Source of the DNA: Kiloniellaceae bacterium
GTDB lineage: Bacteria > Pseudomonadota > Alphaproteobacteria > Kiloniellales > J153
Length of the DNA: 36,590 nucleotides
Assembly (NCBI GenBank): GCA_046759925.1
Contig: JBHIDD010000001.1
Span: 1-36,590 of the forward strand
Direction: 5' to 3'
Positions 11,485 to 36,590 of the stretch are shown in pieces. Positions within the stretch are counted from its first letter, which is position 1, and each line of letters starts with the position of its first letter. Below the pieces are notes generated by a model that saw only the letters and a program-made list of their open reading frames with translations, did not search any database and had not been told where the DNA came from. The translations under genes and the position numbers were made by a program.

Positions 11485-12663
11485 ATGAGCCTCGATCCGA
11501 GCCCACTCGGCGGTACCTGGAGCTTTCCGACCCAGATCCGCTTCGGCCTCGGCCGGATCAAAGAGCTCGCCGGGGCCTGCCGCAGCCTCGGCATGGCCCG
11601 GCCGCTGCTGGTCACCGATCCGGGCCTGGCCGAGCTTCCCATGGTGCGCGACGCGCTTGCCGCCAACGAGGCCGCGGGGTTGCCGACCGGCCTGTTCACC
11701 GGCGTCAAGCCGAACCCGGTGGGCCGGAACGTGGGCGACGGTCTCGAGGCCTTCCGCCGAGGCGGCCACGACGGCGTCATCGGGTTCGGCGGCGGTAGCG
11801 GGCTGGACGCCGCCAAGGCGATCGCCTTCATGGCCGGGCAGAGCCAACCGATGTGGGACTTCGAGGACCGGGGCGACAACTGGAAGGCCGCCGACGCGCA
11901 AGGCATCGCACCGATCGTCGCGGTGCCGACCACGGCGGGCACCGGCTCCGAGGTGGGCCGGGCCTCGGTCATCCTGGACGAGGCGAGCCAGACCAAGAAG
12001 GTCATCTTCCATCCCAAGATGCTGCCCGGAATCGTGATCTCCGATCCGGCGCTGACCGTCGGCCTGCCGCCGCAGATCACGGCGGCGACCGGCATGGACG
12101 CGCTGGCCCACTGCCTCGAGGCCTACTGCGCGCCGGGCTATCACCCCATGGCCGAGGGCATCGCGGTCGAGGGCATGCGCCTCATCAAGGGCTGGCTGCC
12201 GAAGGCGGTGGCCGACGGGACCGACCTGGCGGCGCGAGCCAACATGCTGGCCGCCGCGAGCATGGGCGCGACCGCCTTCCAGAAGGGCCTGGGCGCGATC
12301 CATTCGCTCAGCCACCCGGTGGGCGCGCTTTACGATACCCACCACGGGCTCACCAACGCCGTGGTCATGCCCTACGTGCTGGCCTACAACCGCGCCGCGA
12401 TCGAGGACAAGCTGACCCGCCTTGCCGCCTGGCTGGACCTGCCGAACCCGTCGTTCCAGGCGGTCATGGACTGGGTGCTGGCGCTCAGGCGCGCGCTTGC
12501 GATCCCGCATACGCTCAAAGACCTCGGCGTCGGCGACGAGCGCCTGGACGAGCTTTCCGAGATGGCCGCCCGGGACCCGACCGCGCCGGGCAATCCGATC
12601 CCGGTCGGCGTGCCGGAGCTCAAGACCATGTACCTCGCCGCGCTCGAGGGCCGGCTGGCGTAG
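11485..12663 (+). CDS. Iron-containing (group III) alcohol dehydrogenase
   Basis: 392 aa starting at MSLDPS. It has the Fe-ADH motifs GFGGGSGLDAAKAIA, AVPTTAGTGSE and the His cluster (DALAHCLEAY ... IHSLSHPVG). It starts 26 nt after the ALDH stop, so the two are probably an operon. Confidence 0.9.
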   Translation: MSLDPSPLGGTWSFPTQIRFGLGRIKELAGACRSLGMARPLLVTDPGLAELPMVRDALAANEAAGLPTGLFTGVKPNPVGRNVGDGLEAFRRGGHDGVIGFGGGSGLDAAKAIAFMAGQSQPMWDFEDRGDNWKAADAQGIAPIVAVPTTAGTGSEVGRASVILDEASQTKKVIFHPKMLPGIVISDPALTVGLPPQITAATGMDALAHCLEAYCAPGYHPMAEGIAVEGMRLIKGWLPKAVADGTDLAARANMLAAASMGATAFQKGLGAIHSLSHPVGALYDTHHGLTNAVVMPYVLAYNRAAIEDKLTRLAAWLDLPNPSFQAVMDWVLALRRALAIPHTLKDLGVGDERLDELSEMAARDPTAPGNPIPVGVPELKTMYLAALEGRLA

Positions 12664-12936
12664 CTCGTCACGGAGGCTGGCCCGCTGGAACCCGCTGAAG
12701 CAGCGTTTCCGCGCGGCTTACCGCTCCCTAGCGCCGCCAGCCCTTCGGATGTAGCATTCGAGACAGCCATGAGTGTCTCGTAACCGGACGGGGTGGGGAG
12801 GGAGATGGAGCGATGGCTTGCAGTGTGCGATCCGGGCCAAAAATGAACAAAATAGCCCACCGTCCCGGCGTGTCGCCCGGCAAGCATTGCCGGCATTTTC
12901 CAAATCAAAGGAGCCGGGCCGTCGAGGCTCGTACCA

Positions 12937-14136
12937 ATGGCTAAACGCATCCCAGCAGTGATCAAACCGGAGCTTCTCGTATGGGCACGAGAATCCGCCG
13001 GATACTCGGTTGAAGAGGTCGCCAAGAAGCTCAAGAAACAGCCGGAAATTATAGCCGCCTGGGAATCGAAATCCGGCGAGGATCGCCCCTTCATGGGCCA
13101 GCTGCGACGCCTCGCCGAAATCTACAATCGTTCGTTGTCTGATTTTTATTTGCCGAAACCGCCTAAAGAGGGTGCCATTCCGCACGATTTCCGGCGCTCG
13201 CCGGGGGAGGTGGCGCTCGTGTATTCCCCTGCCCTGCGACGCCAGTTGCGCTTGGCACAAAAGCGGCGCGAGCTTGCGCTCTCGCTTTATGAAGAACTGG
13301 CCGAGCAGATTCCCACCATCTCGGATCGCGTATCCGCGACCGCCGACGCCGAAGCAGTTGGTGCGCGAGTCCGTGAGTTCTTAGATGTTGATTTCGCCGA
13401 GCAGAAGCGGTGGGGCGACGGCAGGCCAGCCTACAATGCTTGGCGTCGGCGCATCGAAGCCCTTGGCGTTCTCGTCTTTCAGTTTGAGAATGTCTCACCG
13501 CATGAAGCTTGGGGCTTCTCGATCGTTGAAGGCTCGCTCCCTGTCATCGCGATCAATAGGAAGCTCGCTCCGAACGGGCGCACCTTCACGATGCTGCATG
13601 AGTTCGTCCATGTCCTGTTGGGCGAAAGCAGCACCTGTGACATCGATGACTTCACACCGCGCCGCGAGCAGGAAATGCAGGTCGAGATTTTTTGCAGTCG
13701 CGTCGCCGCCGCTGCGCTCATGCCGGGTCGAATTTTCCGCGCGCACGAGGTGGTCACCGCACATCCTAAGGATGCCAGGCAGTGGGATGACGACGAGATC
13801 AGGTCAATTGCACGCACCTTCGGTGTCAGTCGCGAAGCTGTGGTCCGGCGGCTCGAGACGTTTGGTTTAGCGACCACAGCCTTCTATCTACGGAAACGCA
13901 GTCAATACCAAAGGGAAAGAGAGGAACAGCGGAAGAAGGAACTCGAGGCATCCAAAGATAAGCCTATGAAGCGCAATATGCCTCAAGAGGCCGTCGGCAA
14001 TCTGGGACGCCGCTACGTCAACCTGATTCTCCAGAACTACCAAGAAGACCGGATCACCCTCATGGACGCTTCGGAATATCTCGGCGTACGCGCCGAGAAG
14101 GTTCGCGCGGTCGAGGATCTAGCGACGAGTTGGTGA
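12937..14136 (+). CDS. Fused XRE-like HTH / ImmA-IrrE family (M78, COG2856-like) zinc metalloprotease
   Basis: 399 aa. The N-terminus (LLVWARESAGYSVEEVAKKLKKQPEIIAAWESKSGEDRPFMGQLRRLAEIYNRSLSDFYL) is HTH-like. The HEXXH motif HEFVH lies at 13597-13611 in the context TFTMLHEFVHVLLGE. The region is visibly lower in GC than its neighbours. Confidence 0.8.
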   Translation: MAKRIPAVIKPELLVWARESAGYSVEEVAKKLKKQPEIIAAWESKSGEDRPFMGQLRRLAEIYNRSLSDFYLPKPPKEGAIPHDFRRSPGEVALVYSPALRRQLRLAQKRRELALSLYEELAEQIPTISDRVSATADAEAVGARVREFLDVDFAEQKRWGDGRPAYNAWRRRIEALGVLVFQFENVSPHEAWGFSIVEGSLPVIAINRKLAPNGRTFTMLHEFVHVLLGESSTCDIDDFTPRREQEMQVEIFCSRVAAAALMPGRIFRAHEVVTAHPKDARQWDDDEIRSIARTFGVSREAVVRRLETFGLATTAFYLRKRSQYQREREEQRKKELEASKDKPMKRNMPQEAVGNLGRRYVNLILQNYQEDRITLMDASEYLGVRAEKVRAVEDLATSW

Positions 14137-14138
14137 TA

Positions 14139-14603
14139 ATGGCCGAGGCCATCAGCTATAGCATCGATACAAGCGCTCTGATCAACTGGTGGATTGAGGA
14201 CTACAGCCCTGACGTTTTCCCCGGTCTCGTCCCAAAATTGCAAGGCTTGATCGCTGAAGGCCGTTTGCGGGCGATCCGTAGCGTCAAGGACGAGCTCGCC
14301 GAGGGTGATCTTCGGAAGTGGTGTTTGGACCAGCCGGATTTCTTCGCTGAGGAAGACCAGGATATTCAGCGGCGAGTGGCGGAATTGATGGCTGCATATC
14401 AAAATCCTAAGAAGGCGCGTGGTATCGACAAGGCTGACCCATTTGTTATTGCATTAGCTGATATCAACGGCTGGTATGTCGTTTCGGCCGAGCAAGGTGG
14501 AAGCCTCGCGAATAGACCAAGTATACCGATCGTATGCGGCGCAATCGGCGTCAAGCATGTCCGCTTTTTCGATATGCTGCGCCAGGAGGGATGGCGGCTT
14601 TGA
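14139..14603 (+). CDS. DUF4411-family PIN-like putative nuclease
   Basis: 154 aa: MAEAISYSIDTSALINWW......VKDEL......ADPFVIALADINGWYVVSAEQ....NRPSIPIVCGAIGVKHVRFFDMLRQEGWRL. It matches the DUF4411 pattern as I remember it. The ATG is 2 nt after the ImmA-like TGA (TGATAATG); GTG 14133 and TTG 14130 are alternative starts. Confidence 0.7.
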   Translation: MAEAISYSIDTSALINWWIEDYSPDVFPGLVPKLQGLIAEGRLRAIRSVKDELAEGDLRKWCLDQPDFFAEEDQDIQRRVAELMAAYQNPKKARGIDKADPFVIALADINGWYVVSAEQGGSLANRPSIPIVCGAIGVKHVRFFDMLRQEGWRL

Positions 14604-14634
14604 CTGCTGATGTTCCGATCGACAAGCCGCATTA

Positions 14635-15780
14635 ATGCCCCACATAACACGCAGCCTACCGGCCCTTTGGCTTTCGTGTGTCGGACTCGCGCTTGCCGCC
14701 TGTTCGCCGACGCGGGCGGTCGAGGCCTGGCGCCTGCTCGGCGACCTGGCCGCGGGGCCCGCGCCCAGCGCGCTCAAGGAGGTCACCCCCGAACCGCGGC
14801 GCCGCGCGCTGGCCTACCGCATCGACGGCCGGGAACGCACAGGCGATCTCTACCGGCCGGGCGATCGAGCGAAAGCCGCCTTGGTCCTGGTCCCCGGGGC
14901 CGCGCCCGAGGGCAAGGACGATCCACGGCTCGTCGCCTTCGCCATGACCCTGGCACGGGCGCGATTCGCCGTCCTGGTCCCGGAGATCGAAAACCTGCGC
15001 GATCTCAACGTGGATCCGGCCGACGCCCGGGTCATCGCCGACGCCGTCCGGCACCTCGCCGCGCTGAGCGGAACGGGGGTGCCGCCTGCGGTCGGGCTCA
15101 TCGCCATTTCCTACGCCGCCGGCCCCGCCGTGCTGGCCGCCTTGCAGGAGGACGCCCGCGACCATGTGCGCTTCGTCATGGCGATCGGCGGCTACTACGA
15201 CATCGAGGCGGTGGTGACCTTTTTCACCACCGGATATTTCCGCGACGGGGCGGAGATTTCCTGGCGCCACCGGGCGCCCAATGCCTACGGCAAGTGGGTC
15301 TTCGTGCGGAGCAACGCCCGGCGCCTCGAGGACGCCCGCGACCGGGTGCTTCTCAGCGCCATGGCGGCGCGCAAGCTGCGCGACCTCACCGCGGAGATCG
15401 GCGATCTCGCGGCCAAGCTCGGGGCCGAAGGCCGGGCGGTCTACGCCCTGCTGGTCAACGCGGATCCCGAGGCCGTGCCGGCCCTGATCGCGCGGCTGCC
15501 CGCGGCGGTCCGTGCCGACATGGCGGCGCTCGACCTCAAACGGCGGGACCTCTCGAAGCTGGCGGCCAGGCTGATCCTGGTCCACGGGCGCGAGGACGCC
15601 ATCATCCCCTACAGCGAAAGCAAGGCGCTGGCCGGCACCTTGCCCGATAGCCGGGTGACCTTGTACCTGGTGGACAACCTGGCCCATGTGGACCTCAGCC
15701 CCGGCGGCATGATCGACGCCCTGAGGCTGTGGCAAGCGGCCTACCGGCTGCTCGCCGAGCGCGACGCCGGTTCGGGTTGA
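14635..15780 (+). CDS. Alpha/beta-hydrolase-fold lipoprotein (function unknown)
   Basis: The N-terminus MPHITRSLPALWLSCVGLALAAC has a lipobox (LAAC). The C-terminus is LILVHGREDAIIPYSESKALA...LAHVDL, and AISYAAG is a possible nucleophile elbow. Amino-acid composition is normal, unlike the overlapping 393-aa and 346-aa shadow ORFs. Confidence 0.65.
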   Translation: MPHITRSLPALWLSCVGLALAACSPTRAVEAWRLLGDLAAGPAPSALKEVTPEPRRRALAYRIDGRERTGDLYRPGDRAKAALVLVPGAAPEGKDDPRLVAFAMTLARARFAVLVPEIENLRDLNVDPADARVIADAVRHLAALSGTGVPPAVGLIAISYAAGPAVLAALQEDARDHVRFVMAIGGYYDIEAVVTFFTTGYFRDGAEISWRHRAPNAYGKWVFVRSNARRLEDARDRVLLSAMAARKLRDLTAEIGDLAAKLGAEGRAVYALLVNADPEAVPALIARLPAAVRADMAALDLKRRDLSKLAARLILVHGREDAIIPYSESKALAGTLPDSRVTLYLVDNLAHVDLSPGGMIDALRLWQAAYRLLAERDAGSG

Positions 15781-16051: not shown

Positions 16052-17110
16052 ATGTCGATGTTCGACCATCCGGAATTCGCCGACCACGAGCAGGTCGTGT
16101 ACGGCCGCGACGCCGGGAGCGGCCTGAAGGCCATCATCGCCATCCACGACACCAGACGAGGACCCGCCGTCGGCGGCTGCCGCATGTGGCCGTATGCCAC
16201 GGAAGACGAGGCGCTGACCGATGCCCTGCGCCTGGCCCGCGGCATGACTTACAAGTCGGCGCTTGCGGACCTGCCCTACGGCGGCGGCAAGTCGGTCATC
16301 ATCGGCGATCCGCACACCATGAAGTCCGACGACCTGTTCCGCGCCATGGGCCGCTTCGTCGAGTCGCTCGGCGGGCGCTACATCGTCGCCGAGGACGTCG
16401 GGATTTCGGTCGACGACGTCGAGGTGATGGGGCGTGAAACCAGACACGTGGCGGGAACCCGGGCGGGCGGCGCCGGGGATCCGTCGCCGTCCACGGCCTA
16501 CGGCGTCTTCATGGGCATCCGCGCGGCGGTCGCGCACAAGCTGGCCAAGAGCTCGCTCGAGGGCATACGCGTGGCGGTCCAGGGCTTGGGCCACGTCGGT
16601 TATCGCCTGTGCCGCTATCTGACCGGCGACGGGGCCAAGCTGACCGTCACCGACATCGACCGGGCCGAGGTCGAGCGCGCCGCCCAGGACTTCGACGCCC
16701 GGGTCGTCCAGCCGGACCGCATCTACGGCGTCGAGGCCGAGGTCTTCGCGCCCTGCGCGTTGGGCGCGATCCTCAACGACGAGACGATTCCCCGGCTCAA
16801 AGCAAAGATCGTCGCGGGCTCCGCCAACAACCAGTTGGCCGAGCCGCGCCACGGCGCGGAGCTGACCCGGCGCGGCGTACTGTACGCCCCCGACTACGTC
16901 ATCAACGCGGGCGGCATCATCCATATCAGCCACGAGGGACCGTCCTACGACAAGGCCGAGGCGGTCGACCACGTGGCCAGGATTCACGACACCCTGCGCG
17001 AGATCTTCAGCCGCGCCGATGCATCGGGCATCCCGACCTCGGAAGCCGCCGACCGGCTCGCCGAGGAGCGCTTGAAGAACCTCCCCGTGGCAGCGCACGC
17101 GGCGGCCTGA
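16052..17110 (+). CDS. Glu/Leu/Phe/Val dehydrogenase family protein (leucine/valine dehydrogenase-like)
   Basis: 352 aa containing [47 protein letters not shown] (catalytic Lys motif) and the Rossmann motif [11 protein letters not shown]. Confidence 0.85.
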
Positions 17111-17159
17111 CGGGCGCTACCGGCCCGGTTCGGCCGGGCGCGCGTAACGGCCCCAAGCG

Positions 17160-20100
17160 CTAGACCGGCAAATCCTCGCCAAGCGACATGAGCGAGGCGT
17201 TGCCGCCGGCCGCCGTGGTGTCGATGCTGAGCGTCCGCTCGGTGGCGAAGCGGTAGAGGTAGCGCGGTCCGCCCGCCTTGGGTCCGGTCCCGGAGAGGCC
17301 CTCGCCGCCGAAGGGCTGCACGCCGACCACGGCGCCGATCATGTTGCGGTTGACGTAGGCGTTGCCGACGCGCAGGCGCCGGTGGATGTAGGCCACGGTC
17401 GAATCGATCCGGCTGTGAATGCCCAGCGTCAGCCCGTAGCCGGTGCCGTTGATCGCCTCCAGCACGCCATCCAGGCGATCGGCCCGGTAGCGGATGACGT
17501 GGAGGATGGGCCCGAAGACCTCGCGCTGCAGCCGGCCGAGCGATTCGATCTCGAAGACCGCGGGCGCCACGAAGCTGCCGTGCTCCGTGCCCGGACCCGG
17601 CTTGGCGCGCCTGATCAGGCGGCCGTCCGCGGTCAGGCGCCTGGCATGGCCGTCGAGCATGGCTTGCGCCTCGGAATCGATCACCGGGCCGACGTCGGTG
17701 GACAGCCAGGCCGGGTCGCCGACGATCAGCTCCTCCATGGCGCCGGCGAGCATCTCCAGCATCTTGTCGGCGACCTCCTCCTGCAGGAACAGGACGCGCA
17801 GGGCCGAGCAGCGCTGCCCGGCGCTTTGGAAGGCGGAGGCGATCACGTCAGCGACCACCTGTTCGGGCAGCGCGGTCGAATCCACGATCATGGCGTTCTG
17901 CCCGCCGGTCTCGGCAATGAGTGGCACGATCGGGCCGTCGCGCTTGGCCAGCGTCTCGTTGATCAGCTTCGCCGTCTCGGTGGAGCCGGTGAAGGCCACC
18001 CCCGCCACCCGCGGATCGGCCACCAGCGGGCCGCCGACGCTCGGCCCGTCGCCCGGCAGCAGATGCAGGACATCGCCCGGTACCCCGGCCCGGTGCAGGA
18101 GGCGCACGGCGGCGGCGGCGATCAGCGGCGTCTGTTCGGCCGGCTTGGCAATGACCGCATTGCCGGCGGCCAAAGCGGCGCTCACCTGGCCGGTGAAGAT
18201 GGCCAGCGGGAAATTCCACGGGCTGATGCAGGCGAAGACCCCGCGCCCGTGCAGCGCCACCTCGTTGCGCTCGCCGGTTGGCCCCGGCAAGGCGGTCGGT
18301 CCGGCGAAATCGGCGCGCGCCCGGGCCGCGTAGTAACGGCAGAAGTCGACCGCCTCGCGGACCTCGGCGTTGGCATCGCCGATGGTCTTGCCGGCCTCTC
18401 GGACGCAGAGCGCCATGAGCTCGGCCCGGTTGTCCTCGATCAAGCCCGCCATGCGATCGAGGCAGGCGGCGCGGTCCTCGGCCGGGGTCGCGTCCCAATC
18501 GCCGGCCGCCCGATGGGCGCGGCCGAGCGCCTGGTCGACGTGGCCGCGGCCGGCCTCCACCACCTCGCCGACCGCGCGCCGGTGATCCGCCGGATCGTAG
18601 ACCGGCCGCGCCGTCCCGTTCCGGGCGATGCCGCCGACCAGCGGGGCCGCACTCCAGTCGCGCGCCGCGGCCGCCGCCATCGCCGCGCCGAGCGGCGCCA
18701 AGGCCTGGGGGTCCGAAAGATCGAGGCCCGCCGCGTTGCGCCGCTCGGCGCCGTAGAGCGCGGCGGGCGGCGGTATTTTCGGATGCGGGATCGCGCGCAA
18801 GGCGCGAACCCGGGCGACCGGGTCGGCGATGATCTCCTCGATCGGCAGCTTCTCGTCGACGATGCGGTTGACGAAGGAGGTGTTGGCGCCGTTCTCGAGC
18901 AGCCGGCGCACCAGGTAGGCCAGCAGGTCCTCGTGGCTGCCGACCGGCGCATAGACCCGCACCGGCAGGTTCAGCCGGTCTGCGCCGACGACCTGCTCGT
19001 AGAGCGCCTCGCCCATGCCGTGCAGGCGCTGGAACTCGAAGTCGCGGGATTCGCCGGCCATCTCCAGGACCGCAGCCAGGCTGTGCGCGTTGTGGGTCGC
19101 GAATTGCGGGTAGAAGGCGTCCGGGCTGGCGAACAGACGCTTGACGCAGGCGAGATACGAAACGTCGGTCGCGGACTTGCGGGTAAACACCGGATAGTCG
19201 GACAAGCCCGCTTCCTGGCTCCGCTTGATCTCGGTGTCCCAGTAGGCGCCCTTGACCAGGCGGACCATGAGCCGCCGCTCGTGGCGCCGGGCCATGTCGG
19301 CCAGCCAGTCGAGGACGAAGCCGGCGCGTTTCTGGTAGGCCTGCACGGCCAGCCCGACGCCGTTCCAGCCGGCCAGCTCCGGATCGCCGGAGAGCGCCTC
19401 GACGACATCGAGGGAGAGCTCCAGGCGGTCGGCCTCCTCGGCATCGACGGTGAGGCCGATGCCTTGGCCCTTTGCGTCGGCCGCCAGCGCCTTGAGGCAC
19501 GGGACGAGCTCGTCCATCACCCGCGCGCGCTGGGCGAACTCGTAGCGCGGATGCAGCGCCGAAAGCTTGACCGAGATGCCCGGCGATTCGACCGGTCCCC
19601 GGCCGCCGGCCGCCGCGCCGAGCGCCGCGATGGCGCTGCGGTAGGCCGCGAAATAGCGCTTCGCATCGGCCATGGTGCGCGCCGCCTCGCCGAGCATGTC
19701 GTAGGAATGGCGGTAACCCCGCTGTTCCTCCGGCCTGGCCCGCTCGAGGGCCTCCGCGATCGTGCGGCCCATGACGAACTGGCGGCCCAGGATGCGCATC
19801 GCCTGGGTCACGGCGGCGCGGATCACCGGCTCGCCGCTGTCGTGGACCAGGCGGCGCAGGGTGCCGGCGAGATCCTGCGTGTCCTGCTCGTCCAGGCGCA
19901 CGACGCGGCCGGTCAGCATCAGCGCCCAGGTCGAGGCATTGACGAAGACCGAATCGCTCTTGCCCAGGTGGGCCTCCCAGTCGGCGGTGGCGATCTTGTC
20001 CTTGATCAGCCTGTCGACCGTCTCGGCGTCGGGAACCCGCAGGAGCGCCTCGGCCAGGCACATGAGCACGACGCCCTCCTTGCTGGAGAGCCGGAACTCG

Positions 20101-27250: not shown

Positions 27251-27326
<76 letters not shown>

Positions 27327-27668: not shown

Positions 27669-28231
27669 TCCTCCGGCTCCTCCTCCTGCTCGTCGCCCGC
27701 ATTTGTCGCCTTCTTGGCCTGGTGCTCTCGAATGGTCCGATCCTTGAAGCGCTCAAGAATGTCCTGGTCCGCCTGGGAGAGCGCGCGTTCGGCTTCCTCG
27801 GCCGCTTCCTCCTTGCCGTAGCGCTCGGCCAGACCGAGGAAGCGATCGCGGGCGTGCCGGTCGCCCTTGAGGGCCGTGGCGCGCAGCTGTTTGAGGGCGG
27901 CGCGCTGGCTGGAGACCGTCGTAGCGCGCCCGTCCTGCCGGAGACTGACGGGCTCGGCCAGCTCCTCGCGCAGGTCGGTTCGAAAGTTCCTGGTGCCCTT
28001 GGGCCGGCCCTTCGGGTTGCCGGAGCGGCCCTTCGGGAAGCGCGTGTGGGCGGGCTTCGCAAAACCTGCTGGACTTTTAAGCGCTTGCAGAGTGATCTTG
28101 GCCCGGCCATTCGTGGCCGGATCAAGAACACTCTGCTTAGGCTTGCAAAAATGTGGAAGACGAGGCGGCCGGAGCATGTGGTCATATCGATGACTTCGGT
28201 CAGCGAACGAACTCCCGTATCCCGAGATCAA
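27665..28231 (-). CDS. DUF5681-type phage protein (occupies the small-terminase position). The native 5' end has been replaced by repeat copy C, so it may be a pseudogene.
   Basis: RFPKGRSGNPKGRPKGTRNF is the hallmark DUF5681 N-terminal motif, followed by a helical acidic tail. Residues upstream of this motif are encoded by the MITE/REP-like copy C. The only in-frame starts (28231 and 28177) lie beyond or inside the repeat. Confidence 0.55.
   Translation of the reverse strand: MISGYGSSFADRSHRYDHMLRPPRLPHFCKPKQSVLDPATNGRAKITLQALKSPAGFAKPAHTRFPKGRSGNPKGRPKGTRNFRTDLREELAEPVSLRQDGRATTVSSQRAALKQLRATALKGDRHARDRFLGLAERYGKEEAAEEAERALSQADQDILERFKDRTIREHQAKKATNAGDEQEEEPEE
28039..28141 (+). repeat. Copy C of the MITE/REP-like element, missing the outer ~25-bp arm
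   Basis: agcgcgtgtgggcgggcttcgcaaaacctgctggacttttaagcgcttgcagagtgatcttggcccggccattcgtggccggatcaagaacactctgcttagg aligns to 969-1071 with a handful of mismatches. Confidence 0.85.
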
Positions 28232-28237
28232 CCGGGC

Positions 28238-28543
28238 TCAGGTCGGCTCGGCTGCTAGTTCGGGGTTGAAAATGCCCCGGCGTACGTTGCTGATCTCGAC
28301 GCGCTCGAACAGGCCGGCCTTGGTGAACGGGTCGCCCTCCGAGAAGGCCTCGGCGGCCTTGCGGTCCGGTACGCTGACGATGAAGAAGCTGCCGTAGAGC
28401 GTCTTGCCGTCGTCTTCCTGCCTGGCGCCGGCCCAGATCAATTTGTCCAACTGGGTGTTCAGATAATCGACGTGGAAATGGAGGTTTTCTGTCCGCAGCT
28501 TGGCCGCGTTCGGCTTGTCGCTGCAGTGAATGACGAAATACAT
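28238..28543 (-). CDS. YciI-family protein
   Basis: 101 aa: MYFVIHCSDKPNAAKLRTENLHFHVDYL......GSFFIVSVPDRKAAEAFSEGDPFTKAGLFERVEI. This is the typical YciI-like fold signature. The start is set at ATG 28543; the longer track ORF adds an Arg-rich extension. Confidence 0.8.
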   Translation of the reverse strand: MYFVIHCSDKPNAAKLRTENLHFHVDYLNTQLDKLIWAGARQEDDGKTLYGSFFIVSVPDRKAAEAFSEGDPFTKAGLFERVEISNVRRGIFNPELAAEPT

Positions 28544-28829
28544 GGCGAAAGCTTCTTCCGGTCTAATCTGAGGATGGAATTCTCTCCGACGCGAATGGCT
28601 CCTTCCGGTCCCGCGGCCGCGAGTCCAGGTATTTTGTCTGCTTCTGGTGGACTCGAGACCAGTTCTCGCACGTCCGAATCGCAGTGCCTGGGGCCGATGG
28701 CAATTTTCCGGCCGCCTCCCGGTATCCATGGGATGCCGGTGCAGTAACGGATTCCTCCGTTTTGCTGGCGGTTTCAACCCTTTTTCCTGACGATTTCAGA
28801 CGCGGTCCCCGGCCAAGCCAACGCCGCCG

Positions 28830-28858
28830 TTGACATGCAATTCGATGTTGATCATAGT
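28830..28858 (+). promoter_or_regulatory. Putative sigma70 promoter of the transport/aminotransferase cluster
   Basis: TTGACA (28830-28835), a 17-nt spacer and CATAGT (28853-28858), in an AT-rich stretch. It is followed by tctaga / tatata palindromic sequence. Confidence 0.4.
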
Positions 28859-28894
28859 TCTAGAGCTATATAGGTATATCCGAAAATCGCAATC

Positions 28895-28926
28895 ATGTCC
28901 CGATGATTCCATTGTCCCGGTGATTC
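28895..28926 (+). promoter_or_regulatory. Tandem 15-bp direct repeat in the 5' leader (candidate regulator binding site)
   Basis: atgtcccgatgattc (28895-28909) and ttgtcccggtgattc (28912-28926) match at 13 of 15 positions, with a 17-bp periodicity. They lie between the putative promoter and the SBP start. Confidence 0.4.
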
Positions 28927-29015
28927 ATGAACGCTTCGCGGCCATCTGGGCCTGGAGGAATCGATATCGGGAAGAGCGGTTGACGTGCGAACGCACAAAT
29001 AGGGAGGAAGAGGAG

Positions 29016-30086
29016 ATGCGTGGATGCAAACTAGAATACCTCACCGCGGTCTTCGTCGGTGTGGGGATCATCGCCGCGGCGTTGAGCGTGCCGGTACCGG
29101 CGAGCGCCGATGGAAAACTGACCATCACATCGTTTGGCGGCTCTTTCCAGGAGGCGCAGCGCAAGGCTTGGTTCGAGCCGTTCGCGAAGGAGAAAAACGT
29201 TAACGTTCTCGAAGACGAATGGAGCGGCGAGATGGCCAAGCTTCGGGCCATGGTCCAGTCCGGAAACGTGACCTGGGACGTGGTCGGCATTTCTGATGGA
29301 CAGCTTCCGCTTGCGTGTGACGAAGGATTGGTCGAACCCATTGATCCCGCAATGTTCGGCGGCAAGGACAATTTTCTCCCGGGCTGGACCCATGAATGTG
29401 GTGTCGGCGCCATCATCGCCTCGATCGTGATTGGCTATAACGCCGAAAAGTTCCCTGGCGAAAAGCCGAATACCCTGGCCGATTTTTGGGACGTCGAGAA
29501 GTTCCCCGGACCCCGTGCCATGAAAAAATGGCCCAAGCACAACCTGGAATTCGCGCTGTTGGCGGACGGGGTTTCTCCTGGAGAGCTGTACGACGTATTG
29601 GGCACCGACGAAGGCGTCGCGCGCGCCTTCAAGAAGCTGGACGAGATCAAGCCGCATGTGAAGGTCTGGTTCACCAATTGGGCACAGCCGGGTCAATTGT
29701 TGGCCGATGGCGAGGTGATCATGTCCACCGGGACCAATGGGCGTCTCGGGGTTGCTGCCAAATCGGCCCCGCAGATCGAGTTCTTCTGGGACCGCCAGGG
29801 CTATAGCGGCGACATGTGGGCGATCGTGAAGGGCGCCAAGAATAAGGCGAACGCGATTGAGTTCATCAAGTATGCCAGCCAACCCAAGAACGCGGCCCGG
29901 ATTGTCGAACACATCTTGTATCCGCCGCCGGTGCCGAAGGCCTTGGCGGCAATGCCTCCGGAGCTCGCCAAGGAGATGCCAATCAACCCGGACAACCTGA
30001 AGACGGCCTGGGTTGTTAACTCCCGGTTTTGGGGCGATCACCTCGACGACTACGAAATCCGTTTCCAGGCCTGGCTGGGACAATAA
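29016..30086 (+). CDS. ABC transporter periplasmic substrate-binding protein (PotD/PotF-like extracellular solute-binding family)
   Basis: 356 aa. The signal-peptide-like N-terminus is MRGCKLEYLTAVFVGVGIIAAALSVPVPASA. The mature part (KLTITSFGGSFQEAQRKAWFEPF ... WDV...) is typical of polyamine/opine-type SBPs. GGGAGGAAGAGGAG lies just upstream of ATG 29016. Confidence 0.8.
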   Translation: MRGCKLEYLTAVFVGVGIIAAALSVPVPASADGKLTITSFGGSFQEAQRKAWFEPFAKEKNVNVLEDEWSGEMAKLRAMVQSGNVTWDVVGISDGQLPLACDEGLVEPIDPAMFGGKDNFLPGWTHECGVGAIIASIVIGYNAEKFPGEKPNTLADFWDVEKFPGPRAMKKWPKHNLEFALLADGVSPGELYDVLGTDEGVARAFKKLDEIKPHVKVWFTNWAQPGQLLADGEVIMSTGTNGRLGVAAKSAPQIEFFWDRQGYSGDMWAIVKGAKNKANAIEFIKYASQPKNAARIVEHILYPPPVPKALAAMPPELAKEMPINPDNLKTAWVVNSRFWGDHLDDYEIRFQAWLGQ

Positions 30087-30128
30087 GGCCCGATAACGCG
30101 TAAGTGTCACGGCGCAGATACCGGCAGA

Positions 30129-30160
30129 CGCGGCCCGGACAAGCGCCAGCCCGGGCCGCG
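30129..30160 (+). terminator. GC-rich hairpin after the SBP gene (possible attenuating or terminating structure; no U tract)
   Basis: cgcggcccgg (30129-30138) pairs with ccgggccgcg (30151-30160), giving a 10-bp stem and a 12-nt loop, 43 nt after the SBP stop. Confidence 0.3.
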
Positions 30161-30409
30161 CCGTCGGTGCAATTCGGCGGGATCCTCATTGACGCTTCCG
30201 TGGTTCCCCCGACATTCGATAAACCTGTTAACCTATCCACGCGCTGCCAACACGCACTCGCTCATGTATCGGAGGTGGGGCTGGATCGGCGGCAATGGCT
30301 TGGGATAACAGGATCACGACCGCCCGAGGGACGACTGAGATAATTGCCGGTGGGAATACGGGGAGGGAAAATATCGGCCGGTTCGGCCCACGTGTGAGAG
30401 AGAACGCGG

Positions 30410-31738
30410 ATGTTTCCCGATTTCAAATCCCGGTCAGGAAAATTATACGAACGGGCCTGCGAGGTCATGCCGGGCGGCAACACGCGCACCAGCCTATATT
30501 GGCCACCGCATCAAATTTACGCCGCGTATGCCTCTGGGACCCGAGTCGTCGACGTCGATGGCGTGGAGCGGGTCGACCTGAACAACAACTTCACCGCGCT
30601 CATCCATGGGCATGCCCATCCAGTAATCGTCGAGCGCGTCCAAGAGCAAATTGGCCGTGGCGCATGCGTCGGCATGGCGACGGAATCGGAAATAGCGCTC
30701 GCCGAGCTTATCTGTTCGCGCGTGCCCTCGATCGAACACATTCGCTTCGCCAATTCCGGCACCGAAGCGGTGCTGGCCACGATCAAGGCGGCGCGCGCAT
30801 ACACCATGCGTCCAAAGATCGCGAAGTGCGAAGGCGTCTATCACGGCACCTCGGACCTCATGGAAATCAGCAACGCCTCCTCGCCCAGGGAGTGGGGGGA
30901 CGAAGCAGCTCCGGCGTCCGTACCGATGTCTCGGGGCACGCCGGAAGGGGTTCTCAAGGACATCATCATCCTGCCGTTCAATAACACCGCGGCGTCCGAA
31001 CGTCTCTTGAAACGCCATGCGCATGAACTAGCCGGAGTGATCATCGATCCGATGCCGGTTCGCTCCGGGCTGATCCCGGCCAAACGGGAATACCTGGACA
31101 TGCTGCGCACGTTCACGCGCCGCAACAATTCCGTCCTCGTCTTCGACGAGGTGCTGACTTTCCGTCTCGGGTATCACGGCGCCCAGACTGTGTTCGGTTG
31201 CGAACCGGACCTCACGGCCTTGGGCAAGATCATCGGCGGCGGCATGCCCGTGGGGGCCGTGGCTGGGAAGCGGGAAATCATGTCCGTCTTCGACCCGCGG
31301 GAGGGATTCGCCGCGTGGCATGGTGGCACGTTCAACGGCAACCCGACGACCATGGTCGCGGGTCTGGCGTGCCTGGAGCTGTTGACTCCGGAGGCCTTCG
31401 AGTGGTTGGACAACCTGGGCGCACGCGCCCGGAGAAGAGTCCGCGAAGTCTTCGGCGCCGCTCGTGCATCCGGGCAGGTCACGGGAGCCGGGTCGCTTTT
31501 CCGAATCCATTGCACCAGTCGGCCGCTCTCAAGTTACCGCACTTTCTATCCATCGCCCGAGGAGGTGCGGAACCTCGAGTGGCTGATGGTGTACTTGCTG
31601 AACCACGGGTTCCTGATGACCAAGATGGGGACCGGCGCATTGTCCACGGTAACGACCGAAGCGGAGATCGACCAGTTCGGTGAAACTCTGTTCGCCGGGC
31701 TGAACGCGATGAAAAAGGAAGGGCTCGCGGCGGAATGA
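30410..31738 (+). CDS. Class-III (fold type I) PLP aminotransferase, glutamate-1-semialdehyde aminomutase (HemL)-like paralog 1
   Basis: 442 aa containing LYERACEVMPGGNTR, FANSGTEAVLATIKAARAYT and a LTALGKIIGGGMPVGAVAG (PLP-Lys) motif. The true HemL motif GGVNSPVRAF is replaced by GGNTRTSLY, so this is not hemL itself. Confidence 0.8.
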   Translation: MFPDFKSRSGKLYERACEVMPGGNTRTSLYWPPHQIYAAYASGTRVVDVDGVERVDLNNNFTALIHGHAHPVIVERVQEQIGRGACVGMATESEIALAELICSRVPSIEHIRFANSGTEAVLATIKAARAYTMRPKIAKCEGVYHGTSDLMEISNASSPREWGDEAAPASVPMSRGTPEGVLKDIIILPFNNTAASERLLKRHAHELAGVIIDPMPVRSGLIPAKREYLDMLRTFTRRNNSVLVFDEVLTFRLGYHGAQTVFGCEPDLTALGKIIGGGMPVGAVAGKREIMSVFDPREGFAAWHGGTFNGNPTTMVAGLACLELLTPEAFEWLDNLGARARRRVREVFGAARASGQVTGAGSLFRIHCTSRPLSSYRTFYPSPEEVRNLEWLMVYLLNHGFLMTKMGTGALSTVTTEAEIDQFGETLFAGLNAMKKEGLAAE

Positions 31739-31762
31739 GCCCAGGCGTGGAGGAGCGTTGAG

Positions 31763-33094
31763 ATGTTTCCCGATCCCAATTCCCGATCGGCCAAGCTGTT
31801 CGAACGTGCCCAGAAGGTCTTGGCCGGTGGCAACACCCGGTTCGCGGTCTATACGGCTCCCTATCAGGTTTATGCCGTCCGCGGTTCGGGGTCCCGGGTC
31901 GTCGACGTCGATGGCGTCGAGCGTCTGGATCTGCAGAACAACATGACCGTGCTCATTCACGGCCACGCCCACCCGGCCATCATGGAAAGAGTGCGCGAGC
32001 AACTGGAGCGCGGGACCTGCTTCGGTCTGTCGACGGAATCTGAAATTGCCTTGGCCGAGGTCCTGTGTTCCCGCGTTCCCTCCTTCGACATAGTAAGGTT
32101 TGTGAACTCGGGCACCGAAGCGGTCATGACCGCCATGAAGGCGGCGCGCGCCTATACCGGCCGGCCGAAGATCGCCAAGGCTGAAGGGTCCTATCACGGG
32201 TCCTACGATTACGCCGAGGTCAGCCTTGATTCCACGCCCGAGAACTGGGGCGATCTCGATCGGCCCAATTCGGTGCCCTACGCAGTAGGAACGCCACAGG
32301 GTGTACTCGAAGACGTCGTCGTCCTCCCGTTCAACGACCCCGACCAGGCGTTGCGGATCCTCGAGACGCAAAAGGACGAATTGGCGGGTGTGTTGATTGA
32401 CCCGCTTCCGGGCCGGTTCGGGCTGATCCCGGCTACCCCGGATTTCCTCGACATGGTCCGAGGCTTCACCCGGCGCACCGGTTCGCTGCTGATTTTCGAC
32501 GAGGTTATTTGCTTCCGCCTTGGTTACCGGGGCGCTCAGACCGAGTTCGAGTGCGAACCGGACCTGACGGCACTGGGCAAGGTGGTCGGCGGCGGCTTCC
32601 CGATTGGCGTGGTGGCGGGACGAAAAGACGTGATGTCCGTTTTCGATCTGACCAGGGACCGGCCACCGGTATTCCAAGGCGGCACCTTCAACGCCAACCC
32701 GGTGTCGATGGTCGCAGGATTGGCAGCGATGGAGTTGTTGACGCCGACGGTATTTGATCGGCTGAACGGCCTTGGGGCCCTAGCGCGCGCAAAGATGGCC
32801 GAGGCTTTCGTGACCGCCGGGGCGCCCGGGCAGGTGACGGGCATGGGGTCGCTATTCCGGATTCATACCACCGACCGGGCCATCTCGGACTACCGCACAT
32901 ATTATCCGTCGGCGGCGGAAAAGCAGGAGCTTGAATGGCTCTGGCGGTACCTGCTGAACCACGGAATATTGATCACGAAAATGGGCATGGGCGCCTTGTC
33001 CACGGTGACGACCGAAGCGGAAATAGAGCTGTTCAGCGAGACCCTTCTCGGCGGTCTGCAAGAGATGCAAAGTGAGGGAATTGCTGCAGCATAG
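31763..33094 (+). CDS. Class-III PLP aminotransferase, HemL-like paralog 2 (tandem duplicate of 30410-31738)
   Basis: 443 aa, colinear with paralog 1 and roughly 60% identical or more by eye (MFPDPNSRSAKLFERAQKVLAGGNTR, NSGTEAVMTAMKAARAYTGRPKIAKAEGSYHG, LTALGKVVGGGFPIGVVAG). GGAGGAG lies upstream of the ATG. Confidence 0.8.
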   Translation: MFPDPNSRSAKLFERAQKVLAGGNTRFAVYTAPYQVYAVRGSGSRVVDVDGVERLDLQNNMTVLIHGHAHPAIMERVREQLERGTCFGLSTESEIALAEVLCSRVPSFDIVRFVNSGTEAVMTAMKAARAYTGRPKIAKAEGSYHGSYDYAEVSLDSTPENWGDLDRPNSVPYAVGTPQGVLEDVVVLPFNDPDQALRILETQKDELAGVLIDPLPGRFGLIPATPDFLDMVRGFTRRTGSLLIFDEVICFRLGYRGAQTEFECEPDLTALGKVVGGGFPIGVVAGRKDVMSVFDLTRDRPPVFQGGTFNANPVSMVAGLAAMELLTPTVFDRLNGLGALARAKMAEAFVTAGAPGQVTGMGSLFRIHTTDRAISDYRTYYPSAAEKQELEWLWRYLLNHGILITKMGMGALSTVTTEAEIELFSETLLGGLQEMQSEGIAAA

Positions 33095-33218
33095 GGTCGT
33101 CTCCCGGGAGCGGCCACGAACGCCGGTCTTGTTCGGGACCCGGACCGGACTGGCTGCTTGGTGTGAGTGTCCGCTCGGCCCTGCCGCAGCCGTTTCATGC
33201 TGATCCAGGTTTTGGGAC

Positions 33219-34145
33219 ATGACCGCACGCCCCAATGAGCGGATCGCCTATTTCAACGGCGAATACGTGCCCGAGCGCGAAGTCCGTGTTCCGTTCCGGG
33301 ACCACAGTTTCAAGTATGGCGACGGCGTCTTCGACATGACGCGCACGTTCAACGGCTGTGCTTTCAAGGTCAAGGAACACGTGGACCGGCTGTACAGGTC
33401 GCTACGCTACGCGCAGATCGATGTCGGGCTCGGCCCCGAGGAGTCCATGGCCATCTGGGAGGAGGTGCTGGACCGCAACCGCCATCTGCGCGGCGACAAC
33501 GGGGATTTCTGGCTCGGCCAACGAGCCTCGCGCGGTATCGATGCCGTGGGCGACGAAGGCTGGGACGACACCGGCCCTACCGTCATCGTCGAATGCCTGC
33601 CCCTGCCGTTGAAGGCCCGAGCGCGCATGTTCCGCGACGGGATCCAGGTGATCGTGCCTTCGGTCCGGCGTATGCCGGCGGTTTCGCTCAGTCCGCGGGC
33701 CAAGACCCACATCATCATGCCCCTGCTCATGGCCGAATTTGAAGTCCGGGGGCAAAATCCGGATGCCTGGCCGATCCTGCTGGATCAAAACGGCAACCTC
33801 GCCGAAGGCCGTGGCTCCAACATATTCCTGGTCCGTGACCACGCCGTCTTTACGCCCAGGGAACAGTATGTTCTCCGGGGAATCAGCCGACAAACGGTGA
33901 TCGACCTGGCGCGTGACCTGGACATTCCTGTCGTCGAGACGGATCTCGACCTCTACGACGCCTACAATGCCGATGAGATCTTCATCACGTCGACAAGCTG
34001 GTGCATTTGCCCGGTCAGCCGCTTCAATCACGTCACGGTCTCCGAGGACCGGGTGCTCGGCCCCGTTACCGAGAGGCTGATCAAGGCCTATATCGAATTG
34101 GTCGGCTGCGACTTCGTGCAACAATACCTCGCCCATCTGGAATGA
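33219..34145 (+). CDS. Class-IV (fold type IV) PLP aminotransferase (BCAT / D-amino-acid / R-selective amine transaminase family)
   Basis: 308 aa containing YFNGEYVPEREVRVPFRDHSFKYGDGVFDMTRTF..........HVDRLYRSL (typical class-IV N-terminus), a candidate PLP lysine in SPRAKTH, and the C-terminal EIFITST. Confidence 0.8.
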   Translation: MTARPNERIAYFNGEYVPEREVRVPFRDHSFKYGDGVFDMTRTFNGCAFKVKEHVDRLYRSLRYAQIDVGLGPEESMAIWEEVLDRNRHLRGDNGDFWLGQRASRGIDAVGDEGWDDTGPTVIVECLPLPLKARARMFRDGIQVIVPSVRRMPAVSLSPRAKTHIIMPLLMAEFEVRGQNPDAWPILLDQNGNLAEGRGSNIFLVRDHAVFTPREQYVLRGISRQTVIDLARDLDIPVVETDLDLYDAYNADEIFITSTSWCICPVSRFNHVTVSEDRVLGPVTERLIKAYIELVGCDFVQQYLAHLE

Positions 34146-34182
34146 GCGCCAGCCTGGAGTCGAGATCGTTGGTGGCGAACCA

Positions 34183-35307
34183 ATGAACGAACGCGCCGGC
34201 CAAGTGGAATCATCCGCGACCAAAGACGGGTTCGTCAATTTCATAAACGTCCAGAAAACCTATGACGGCGAGACGCTGGTCATCAAGGATTTGAACCTTA
34301 CGATCCGCCGGGGCGAGTTCCTAACCCTCCTGGGACCTTCCGGTTCAGGCAAAACCACCACGCTTCTGATGCTTGCCGGCTTCGAGCATCCGACGAGCGG
34401 GGAGATCCAGATCGAAGGCCGGTCTCTGGCGCGGGAGCCCGCGCACCGTCGCGACCTCGGTATGGTGTTCCAGGATTACGCCCTGTTCCCGCACATGACA
34501 GTGGCGGAAAACGTCGCGTTTCCCTTGGCCATCCGCAAACGCGCCAAGCAAGAGATCGTCTCGAAAACGCAGGCCGTGCTGGATATGGTGAAGCTGGGCG
34601 GCTATGGCGACCGGCAACCGTCGCAGCTCTCAGGAGGTCAGCAGCAGCGCGTCGCCCTGGCCCGCGCCCTGGTATTTCAGCCGCGGCTGGTGCTGATGGA
34701 CGAGCCGCTCGGCGCCCTGGACAAACAGCTTCGCGAGCAGATGCAGCTGGAGATCAAGCACATCCAGAATGATCTCGGAATCACGGTTGTCTACGTGACC
34801 CATGATCAGTCAGAGGCATTGATCCTGTCCGACCGGATTGCCGTATTCAACGACGGCAGTATCTATCAACTCGGTACTCCGGACGAACTTTACGAGCACC
34901 CTCAGAACGCGTTTGTGGCGCAGTTCGTCGGGGAGAACAACCGGCTCTACGGCAAGGTCGTCGGCATCGATGAGAGGTTCTGCGAGGTCGCGCTCGAGGC
35001 CGGCGGCGTGGTGAAGGCCGTGCCGGTCAAGGTTGACAACATCGGGTCGCGGACCCTGATTTCGGTACGGCCCGAGCGGGTCGTCCTCAACCCGGACGGG
35101 GGTCATTGCCAGAACATCTTTCACGCCCGGATCGAGGAGCTAATCTACCTGGGGGATCACACCCGGGTCAGGGTTAGCCTGTCCGAGACGGCCTCGGACT
35201 TCGTCGTCAAGGTCCCGTTGCACGAGGGACGCCACGGGTTCCGGGTAGGAAAGGAAATCGAGATCGGCTGGCCCGCGGAGCACTGCCGTGCCCTGGATGC
35301 GCCATGA
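34183..35307 (+). CDS. ABC transporter ATP-binding protein (PotA/MalK-like, with a C-terminal TOBE-type regulatory domain)
   Basis: It has Walker A (GPSGSGKTT), the Q-loop, the signature LSGGQQQRVALARAL, Walker B (LVLMDEPLGALD) and the H-loop (VTHDQSEA). Confidence 0.9.
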   Translation: MNERAGQVESSATKDGFVNFINVQKTYDGETLVIKDLNLTIRRGEFLTLLGPSGSGKTTTLLMLAGFEHPTSGEIQIEGRSLAREPAHRRDLGMVFQDYALFPHMTVAENVAFPLAIRKRAKQEIVSKTQAVLDMVKLGGYGDRQPSQLSGGQQQRVALARALVFQPRLVLMDEPLGALDKQLREQMQLEIKHIQNDLGITVVYVTHDQSEALILSDRIAVFNDGSIYQLGTPDELYEHPQNAFVAQFVGENNRLYGKVVGIDERFCEVALEAGGVVKAVPVKVDNIGSRTLISVRPERVVLNPDGGHCQNIFHARIEELIYLGDHTRVRVSLSETASDFVVKVPLHEGRHGFRVGKEIEIGWPAEHCRALDAP

Positions 35308-36557: not shown

Positions 36558-36568
36558 GGGCCAAGGGC

Positions 36569-36590
36569 ATGAAATTCGATTTCTTGTTCT
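36569..36590 (+). CDS. Start of the next ORF (probably the second ABC permease), cut by the window end
   Basis: ATG at 36569, 11 nt after the previous stop and preceded by a G-rich stretch. The translation is MKFDFLF. Only 7 codons are visible, and the call rests on operon context. Confidence 0.3.

Follow-up and report, generated by a model that had tools for sequence, protein, structure and literature searches.

A probable VapBC52-type toxin-antitoxin module inserted between housekeeping genes of a Kiloniellaceae bacterium

The stretch of DNA analysed here (hereafter the window) is the entire 36.6-kb contig JBHIDD010000001.1 (36,590 nt) of a Kiloniellaceae metagenome-assembled genome (MAG; GCA_046759925.1), and our subject is a two-gene islet lying in it between the genes of an iron-containing alcohol dehydrogenase (Fe-ADH) and a hydrolase-like lipoprotein. 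An initial annotation had described an AT-rich islet bounded by the Fe-ADH stop (12663) and the hydrolase start (14635), with two co-oriented genes at near-zero spacing. These coordinates proved correct, and the compositional dip is clear: the GC content falls from 0.685–0.696 in the flanks to 0.578 in gene 1 and 0.542 in gene 2, and the GC content at third codon positions (GC3) is 0.657 and 0.606, respectively, against 0.88–0.93 in the ADH, hydrolase, and aldehyde dehydrogenase genes. The two genes meet at a TGA-TA-ATG junction, in which only two bases separate the stop codon of gene 1 (14134–14136) from the ATG of gene 2 (14139). On the basis of homology, domain architecture, motif conservation, strict pairing, purifying selection, and backbone insertion, we consider it quite likely that the islet was acquired horizontally and represents an intact two-gene module of the type II toxin-antitoxin (TA) class and VapBC52 type, whose mechanism would be that of its Mycobacterium tuberculosis homologue. 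The latter pair, VapB52-VapC52 (Rv2515c/Rv2514c), is known from the structure of its complex, 9VZY (Singh et al., Nucleic Acids Res 2026; PMC13273310).

Full-length homology of the two genes to VapB52 and VapC52

According to that work, VapC52 is a DUF4411 PIN-fold tRNase, and VapB52 is an unusually large antitoxin, in which a toxin-dimer-binding helix-turn-helix (HTH) N-domain is followed by an IrrE/CapP-like Zn-peptidase with an internal HTH (PMC13273310). The N-terminal domain has five helices, is needed for toxin binding, and is removed on activation, while a 4-helix C-terminal domain occludes the toxin active site; the complex contains antitoxin and toxin in a 1:2 ratio (PMC13273310). At rest, the zinc of VapB52 is capped by a cysteine. 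Single-stranded DNA (ssDNA) triggers self-cleavage, and the cut probably falls at a conserved 'FR' (F75, R76) where the N-terminal domain meets the middle domain (PMC13273310). The counterparts of these elements in the islet are listed below.

12937–14136, + strand: gene 1, VapB52-like multidomain antitoxin of 399 aa (Pfam, PDB sequence match, AlphaFold model)
12967–13149, + strand: N-terminal 5-helix XRE HTH domain, aa 11–71 (model helices 11–21, 25–31, 36–42, 53–62, and 67–71; HTH_3)
13186–13197, + strand: DFRR with the 'FR' motif, aa 84–87, probable self-cleavage site (aligns to the DFRR of 9vzy_A)
13597–13611, + strand: HEFVH zinc/catalytic motif, aa 221–225, with H221, E222, and H225 (aligns to the HEFVH of VapB52)
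13636–13638, + strand: Cys234, matching the 'cysteine switch' residue of VapB52 and CapP (aligned with the Cys in ...TEGLCD of 9vzy_A)
13684–13686, + strand: Glu250, third zinc ligand (aligns to the Glu of ..SLEARC.. in VapB52, E245 in PMC13273310)
13978–14130, + strand: C-terminal 4-helix domain, aa 348–398 (model helices 348–356, 358–369, 375–382, and 386–398; aligns to the C-terminal region of 9vzy_A)
14139–14603, + strand: gene 2, predicted DUF4411 PIN-like nuclease toxin, VapC52-like, 154 aa (Pfam, PDB match, fold match)
14166–14168, + strand: Asp10, PIN catalytic residue, counterpart of VapC52 D6 (aligns to the D6A position of 9vzz)
14292–14294, + strand: Glu52, PIN acidic residue (invariant in 39/39 toxins)
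14436–14438, + strand: Asp100, in ADPFV, PIN acidic residue (invariant in 39/39 toxins)
14490–14492, + strand: Glu118, PIN acidic residue (invariant in 39/39 toxins)

In gene 1, an XRE-type HTH N-domain is joined by a linker to a Zn-peptidase of the M78/IrrE type, which contains an internal HTH, and a 4-helix C-domain closes the protein. Pfam placed HTH_3 at aa 16–70 (E 6e-6) and Peptidase_M78 at aa 175–307 (E 2.9e-18), and the HEFVH motif was located at the expected position, so that the XRE-like HTH and the HEXXH motif named in the initial annotation were both recovered. In a PDB sequence search, aa 10–390 of gene 1 matched residues 3–381 of chain 9vzy_A with an E-value of 2.6e-51, and the BLASTP identity to this chain is 32%. 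The AlphaFold model of gene 1 (pLDDT 89.2) shows a 5-helix N-domain, a lower-confidence linker that carries DFRR (mean pLDDT 71–72 at aa 81–100), a peptidase core of mixed alpha/beta structure, and four helices at the C-terminus. The closest folds to this model are IrrE (3DTI), CapP (7T5T), PprI, and M. tuberculosis PrpR; IrrE 3DTI, CapP 7T5T, and PrpR are also those reported for the middle domain of VapB52 (PMC13273310). Among phage protein families, PHROGs entries match the proteins of both genes, with phrog_2439 matching gene 1 at E 4.9e-44.

For gene 2, the DUF4411 family of Pfam covers the whole length of the protein (profile positions 1–158 of 159, E 4.4e-31), and the segments IDTSAL, ADPFVIALA, and IPIVCGAIGV..FFDMLRQEG, from which the initial annotation had recognised this family, are all present. 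The PDB sequence search matched aa 2–153 to chain 9vzy_D (E 1.2e-21), with a BLASTP identity of 33%. The model of gene 2 (pLDDT 86.7) returned VapC toxins as top folds, all with probability 1.00, the best being M. tuberculosis VapC2 (Rv0301), VapC11, and VapC21; the fold library is older than the release of 9VZY, which therefore could not appear among these matches. Taken together, the Pfam, PDB, and fold searches confirm the Peptidase_M78 and DUF4411/PIN assignments. Gene 2 has an alternative TTG start at 14130, and its close homologues are 154 aa long with the same N-terminus.

All motif positions were mapped by alignment and not by number. The motif numbers in the published work (F75, H216; PMC13273310) are one below the HMMER chain positions (F76, H217), indicating that the paper numbering follows the truncated construct rather than the full-length protein.

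Strict pairing, motif conservation, and selection across the family

We scanned GTDB, with one genome per species, using an alignment of 20 DUF4411 homologues, and detected the upstream partner with a hidden Markov model (HMM) built from gene 1 homologues. The scan yielded 49 loci, and a gene 1 homologue lay directly upstream of the DUF4411 gene, on the same strand, in all of them (49/49 reference-genome loci). As the scan patterns favour query-like DUF4411 proteins, this figure describes the present subfamily and not all DUF4411, a family that amounts to 1474 clusters (50% identity) at E ≤ 1e-3 and 395 at E ≤ 1e-10. The co-occurrence of the two families, which the initial annotation had left to a neighbourhood survey, is therefore complete among query-like loci. 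The hosts include Alphaproteobacteria, Gammaproteobacteria, Solirubrobacterales, Bacillota, Melainabacteria, Chthoniobacterales, Thermoanaerobaculaceae, Thermoplasmata, Methanobacteriaceae, and Methanothrix; Verrucomicrobiota and Acidobacteriota are among the host groups of paired loci, and the archaeal lineages number three.

Motif conservation was then assessed in 45 antitoxins and 39 toxins, with the M. tuberculosis pair included. In the antitoxins, H221, E222, H225, and Glu250 are invariant (45/45), and position 234 is Cys in 42. The probable self-cleavage site follows the pattern D-[F/Y]-R-R, in which R86 is invariant, and the preceding position 85 is F in 25 sequences, Y in 19, and L in one. 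In the toxins, Glu52, Asp100, and Glu118 are invariant, and position 10 is Asp in all 36 sequences with a residue there, the other 3 of 39 having a gap. The strict pairing and the conserved motifs indicate that the mechanism worked out in M. tuberculosis is probably general.

These data also bear on another reading of gene 1, namely a trans-acting protease or regulator of the ImmA/ImmR, IrrE/DdrO, or CapP/CapH kind that acts on a separate HTH repressor, with gene 2 as an accessory nuclease. Such a role would fit the M78 domain with its fold neighbours IrrE and CapP, as well as the PADLOC capP match of gene 1 (E 1.6e-11), and cleavage of an Xre repressor was what Makarova et al. 2009 (PMC2701414) originally proposed. 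However, no separate Xre repressor gene, CBASS (cyclic oligonucleotide-based antiphage signalling) operon, integrative and conjugative element (ICE), or prophage lies nearby, and a DdrO-type gene is likewise absent from the vicinity of the islet. Moreover, the homology to VapB52 is full-length and takes in both toxin-binding domains at the N- and C-termini, the substrate of VapB52 is its own linker, whose motif is conserved in gene 1, and a gene 1 homologue accompanies DUF4411 in every one of the 49 loci. We therefore regard a trans-acting role as improbable. The comparison with ImmA/IrrE-type proteases drawn in the initial annotation holds for the M78 protease fold and needs correction for the substrate: the characterised homologue cuts off its own N-terminal domain and does not cleave a separate repressor.

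Both genes are under purifying selection, as dN/dS against several relatives, including a copy at the same site (L007, see below), is 0.13–0.18 for gene 1 and 0.05–0.12 for gene 2. Some copies elsewhere in the family are damaged: about 8 of the 49 reference copies are frameshifted or interrupted (L042, L044, L047, L048, L049, L052, L053, and L054), and two of these have an insertion of about 1.3–2.4 kb inside the DUF4411 toxin gene (L044, 1057–4249; L054, 2173–4393). The frameshifted and split copies are consistent with recurrent inactivation of the toxin. As for base composition, the module has a lower GC content than its flanks in 36 of the 48 loci with more than 2 kb of flanking sequence (L007–L055), the difference exceeding 0.05 in 19 of them; it tends to stay AT-richer than its high-GC hosts, the window included.

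Insertion into a housekeeping backbone and traces of mobility

Next to the genes, the islet and its borders comprise the following features.

Ends at 12663, + strand: Fe-ADH (open reading frame [ORF]; Pfam Fe-ADH and ADH_Fe_C)
12664–12842, no strand assigned: leader of unassigned origin (GC 0.64; absent from six empty sites; aligns only with L007)
12843–12944, + strand: relic of a resolvase (serine-recombinase) 3' end, 33 codons and TAA (stop overlaps the gene 1 ATG by 8 nt)
14604–14634, no strand assigned: spacer and right-hand insertion junction (31 bp, from the gene 2 stop to the hydrolase start codon)
ATG at 14635, + strand: hydrolase-like lipoprotein gene (lipobox-like LALAAC at the N-terminus; weak alpha/beta-hydrolase match)

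The comparison of ADH-hydrolase loci that the initial annotation had proposed as a means of recognising an insertion gave a clear answer. In six loci of Kiloniellales-like relatives, whose hydrolase is 66–69% identical to that of the window, the pair is absent and the ADH-hydrolase gap is just 17–88 bp, so that the pair is not syntenic across the clade. The backbone common to these empty sites consists of aldehyde dehydrogenase, Fe-ADH, hydrolase, ELFV dehydrogenase, (MarC), and PutA genes. DNA homology between the window and the empty sites stops at 12657–12664 and resumes at 14686–14690. From the empty sites together with this break and resumption, we conclude that the gene pair was inserted into a housekeeping backbone.

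The same insertion was found in L007 (JBHHYS010000194.1, 2135 bp), in which the module lies between an ADH 3' end (85% nucleotide identity) and a hydrolase signal peptide. This contig is labelled 'Terriglobia bacterium', which is probably a binning error. Transfer across phyla, as the 80–87% identical 'Terriglobia' proteins P0004 and P0242 might suggest, was rejected because the module in L007 is flanked by the 3' end of an Fe-ADH gene and the 5' end of a hydrolase gene, both Kiloniellaceae-like, and the apparent sharing is therefore spurious. Since the window and L007 have the insertion in common, it occurs in no fewer than two diverged lineages and is not very recent. The module's other close copies (84%, 81%, and 71% nucleotide identity) lie in unrelated contexts.

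A trace of earlier mobility was seen directly upstream of gene 1. Homology of the window to the loci L056–L059 begins at 12846 and amounts to 84% over 1749 nt. In these loci, the module is directly preceded by a truncated resolvase ORF of 92 aa (L056:533–811), which passes the cutoff for Pfam HTH_7 (28.5 bits) and falls narrowly short of it for the end of the Resolvase domain (21.5 bits, cutoff 23.3). The stop of this ORF overlaps the antitoxin start, and the same 8-nt overlap occurs in the window, where the relic frame aligns to the last 33 residues of the L056–L059 ORF with a BLOSUM62 score of 71; the relic peptide on its own has no Pfam match. This arrangement suggests that the module once travelled beside a resolvase gene, whose fragment would be the trace of a former carrier. 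Searches of plasmid and phage records identified no carrier vehicle, the module being rare in both (10 of 72,556 plasmid records and 1 of 50,697 phage genomes). With respect to the insertion mechanism, neither direct repeats of ≥8 nt straddling the islet nor a target-site duplication, an integrase, or an insertion sequence element was found.

The relic, together with the age of the insertion, raises the question of whether the islet is anything more than a non-functional remnant of an old transfer, neither expressed nor active. A degraded resolvase fragment in the upstream leader, an insertion that is shared with a diverged relative and hence not very recent, and the failure to detect a sigma-70-like promoter would all fit such a remnant. 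On the other hand, neither ORF is disrupted and every catalytic and motif residue is in place, dN/dS is 0.05–0.18 against several relatives including the same-site L007, a conserved GAGG stands 9 nt 5' of the gene 1 ATG, and the two genes meet in a tight TGA..ATG junction; furthermore, the promoter scan covered one promoter type. A dead module is thus very improbable in our judgement.

The immediate surroundings of the islet are metabolic. The flanking genes encode the Fe-ADH, the alpha/beta hydrolase-like lipoprotein, an ELFV dehydrogenase, and PutA; all other window genes examined are metabolic as well, so no defence island is present, and beyond the pair no gene resembling a defence or mobile-element component was seen in the window. 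The defence-island setting considered in the initial annotation was therefore not borne out at this locus. Downstream of gene 2, no terminator-like site was seen in the 14604–14634 spacer; given this and the 31-bp gap, the housekeeping hydrolase gene may now share a transcript with the TA operon inserted upstream of it.

In addition, several features of the backbone and the wider window were recorded. Islet-free relatives carry other TA-type genes just 3' of the hydrolase, namely Gp49/HigB-like and HTH_37 HigA-like genes in L004 (8212–8910) and an HTH_37 gene in L005 and L006 (8212–8526), with a transposase beside the L005 copy; the same backbone neighbourhood acquires different small mobile modules. 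A MarC-family gene lies between the ELFV dehydrogenase and PutA genes in relatives (L001:9525–10154, L004:10595–11224) and is absent from the window, where the gap between these two genes is about 50 bp (17110–17160). A tRNA gene at 27251–27323, which was the sole match in an Rfam scan of the window, is followed by an 8.5-kb stretch of lower GC (0.55–0.62 versus ~0.70). The genes of this low-GC tail (28000–36590) encode a YCII-domain protein, a solute-binding protein, two class-III and one class-IV aminotransferases, and ATPase and permease components of an ABC transporter. The tail was considered as a prophage or defence island and rejected on account of this metabolic gene content; it may be an acquired metabolic island that is not defence-related.

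The setting of the insertion leads to the rival reading with the most to be said for it: the molecular parts would be the same, and their role would be that of a purely selfish addiction module whose loss kills the cell, with no benefit in defence or stress sensing. The solitary insertion between housekeeping genes with no defence genes adjoining would fit such a module, and so would the close copies in unrelated contexts and beside a resolvase fragment, the different TA pair carried nearby by related backbones, and the frequent decay suggested by the frameshifted or interrupted loci (~8/49). Nevertheless, the Cys switch, the F/Y-R site, and HExxH are kept across phyla, which argues for selection on triggered activation. 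Both genes are also under purifying selection, and the M. tuberculosis homologue has infection, copper-stress, and phage phenotypes (PMC13273310). We therefore see pure addiction as a minority possibility, to be taken seriously at about one chance in a few.

Proposed mechanism and comparison with known systems

Returning to the VapBC52-type reading, the following sequence of events may be proposed by homology. Gene 2 would be a PIN-fold ribonuclease, most likely a tRNase, and the N-terminal HTH and C-terminal 4-helix domains of gene 1 would clamp the toxin dimer and block its active site. In the resting state, the Cys would cap the zinc and keep the central M78 peptidase inactive. A build-up of ssDNA, from DNA damage or phage replication, would displace the cysteine loop; the activated peptidase would then cut its own linker at the F/Y-R motif, leading to loss of the N-terminal domain. 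As a result, the complex would disassemble and the freed nuclease would cleave tRNAs, with growth arrest or abortive infection as the outcome. In this account, the M. tuberculosis homologue is the sole source for the 1:2 complex, the ssDNA trigger, the self-cleavage, the tRNA targets, and any phage phenotype. The initial annotation had envisaged a fused HTH-protease polypeptide that holds a PIN-like effector in check, and the VapB52/VapC52 homology and the conserved motifs support this picture; its further idea of a compact stress- or phage-triggered two-gene module gains plausibility from the full-length homology to the M. tuberculosis pair. Its view of the DUF4411 partner as experimentally uncharacterised has been overtaken, since toxicity of Rv2514c and its rescue by Rv2515c were reported in 2019 (TASmania; PMC6504116), followed by structure and mechanism in 2026 (PMC13273310).

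Several points weigh against carrying this mechanism over unchanged. The identity to the characterised pair is 32–33%, and both trigger and target specificity may differ. Toxicity and its neutralisation, ssDNA-triggered self-cleavage, and tRNA cleavage were shown for Rv2514c/Rv2515c only, and the roles given here are roles by homology. Upstream of gene 1, neither a sigma-70-like promoter, in a scan for that one promoter type, nor a conserved operator was found; a palindrome at ~12874–12890 (CCGGCAA-GCA-TTGCCGG) was considered as an operator and set aside, as it is not conserved in L007, L056, and L060. Finally, it was overexpression of VapC52, rather than the native operon, that conferred resistance to phage D29 on M. 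smegmatis; the overexpressed toxin cleaved tRNAs of both host and phage (PMC13273310). With a solitary locus outside any defence island and no PADLOC toxin model that matches, a defence role at this locus is an extrapolation.

A bolder proposal is that VapBC52-type pairs form an ancient, pan-prokaryotic, ssDNA-sensing abortive-infection system, and that solitary copies protect environmental Alphaproteobacteria against phages. Its basis is the set of 49/49 paired loci in at least seven bacterial and three archaeal lineages. We hold it to be possible and somewhat doubtful; if true, it would mean that solitary copies outside defence islands give real phage protection.

The locus adds one member to an already known kind, the structure and mechanism of the VapBC52 family having been published in 2026, and it opens no new mechanistic question. 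It does warrant a change of name: 'VapBC52-type (Rosmer-like) TA module' should replace 'ImmA/IrrE metallopeptidase' and 'DUF4411 family protein'. The survey makes a modest addition, in that even distantly related bacteria and archaea keep the strict pairing, together with the motifs for self-cleavage and the Cys switch. Besides, the locus offers a clean case from nature of a TA module placed exactly between two genes of housekeeping function, whose uninterrupted arrangement is seen in relatives.

Compared with VapBC52 itself, the islet has the same antitoxin-first two-gene operon, with an antitoxin of ~400 aa and a toxin of ~155 aa that are both full-length homologues. The HTH N-domain, the F/Y-R linker, the M78 HExxH with Glu and Cys switch, the internal HTH, the 4-helix C-domain, and the PIN acidic residues of the toxin are likewise shared. 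The differences lie in the 32–33% identity noted above, in the host, which is an alphaproteobacterial MAG and not an actinobacterium, and in the 23-residue disordered N-terminal extension of VapB52, which gene 1 lacks. The exact gene arrangement had been predicted before as an HTH-DUF955(COG2856)/DUF4411.1 'three-component' TA system. Makarova et al. 2009 linked Xre-COG2856 fusions to PIN toxins and named Rv2515c as a fusion example (PMC2701414), and Matelska et al. 2017 found DUF4411.1 genes downstream of fused HTH-DUF955 genes, DUF4411.1 being monocistronic in most Actinobacteria (PMC5499597). Unlike the present reading, these predictions assumed cleavage of an Xre antitoxin or repressor and not a single chain that cuts itself.

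RosmerTA (Millman et al. 2022; Ernits et al. 2023, PMC10440598) resembles the islet in its antitoxin RmrA, in which an HTH is joined to an ImmA/M78 peptidase, and in the swappable toxin, the variable RmrT; within the ImmA antitoxin hub, PIN partners are included, as NetFlax links an ImmA antitoxin node to PIN-like toxins (PMC10440598). Gene 1 matches 12 PADLOC RmrA models at modest scores (E 4.8e-12 to 0.036, ≤43 bits); it has the same domain content but belongs to a distant subfamily. Gene 2, in contrast, has no match in PADLOC-DB v2.0.0 at E up to 0.1, every RmrT model included, and the tested RosmerTA toxins are of other kinds, that of Gordonia phage Kita depolarising the membrane (PMC10440598). 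Without an RmrT match, PADLOC would not call the locus RosmerTA, and with weak RmrA and capP matches for gene 1 and nothing for gene 2 it would miss the locus altogether.

The protease-repressor pairs CapP/CapH, IrrE/DdrO, and ImmA/ImmR share with gene 1 the M78/IrrE peptidase fold and the zinc HExxH site, and ssDNA activates CapP, which has a cysteine-switch loop as well. In those systems, however, the protease acts on an HTH substrate that is a protein of its own, and the output is derepression of transcription, whereas in the window pair both roles would reside in one chain and the output would be release of a nuclease. With canonical VapBC modules, the islet shares the PIN fold and the four acidic residues of the toxin. 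Its antitoxin, by contrast, is a peptidase-bearing protein of ~44 kDa, compared with the 8–13 kDa ribbon-helix-helix (RHH), AbrB, or Phd proteins of canonical VapBC, and the stoichiometry of the homologue VapBC52 is 1:2, compared with 2:2 or 4:4 in the canonical complexes.

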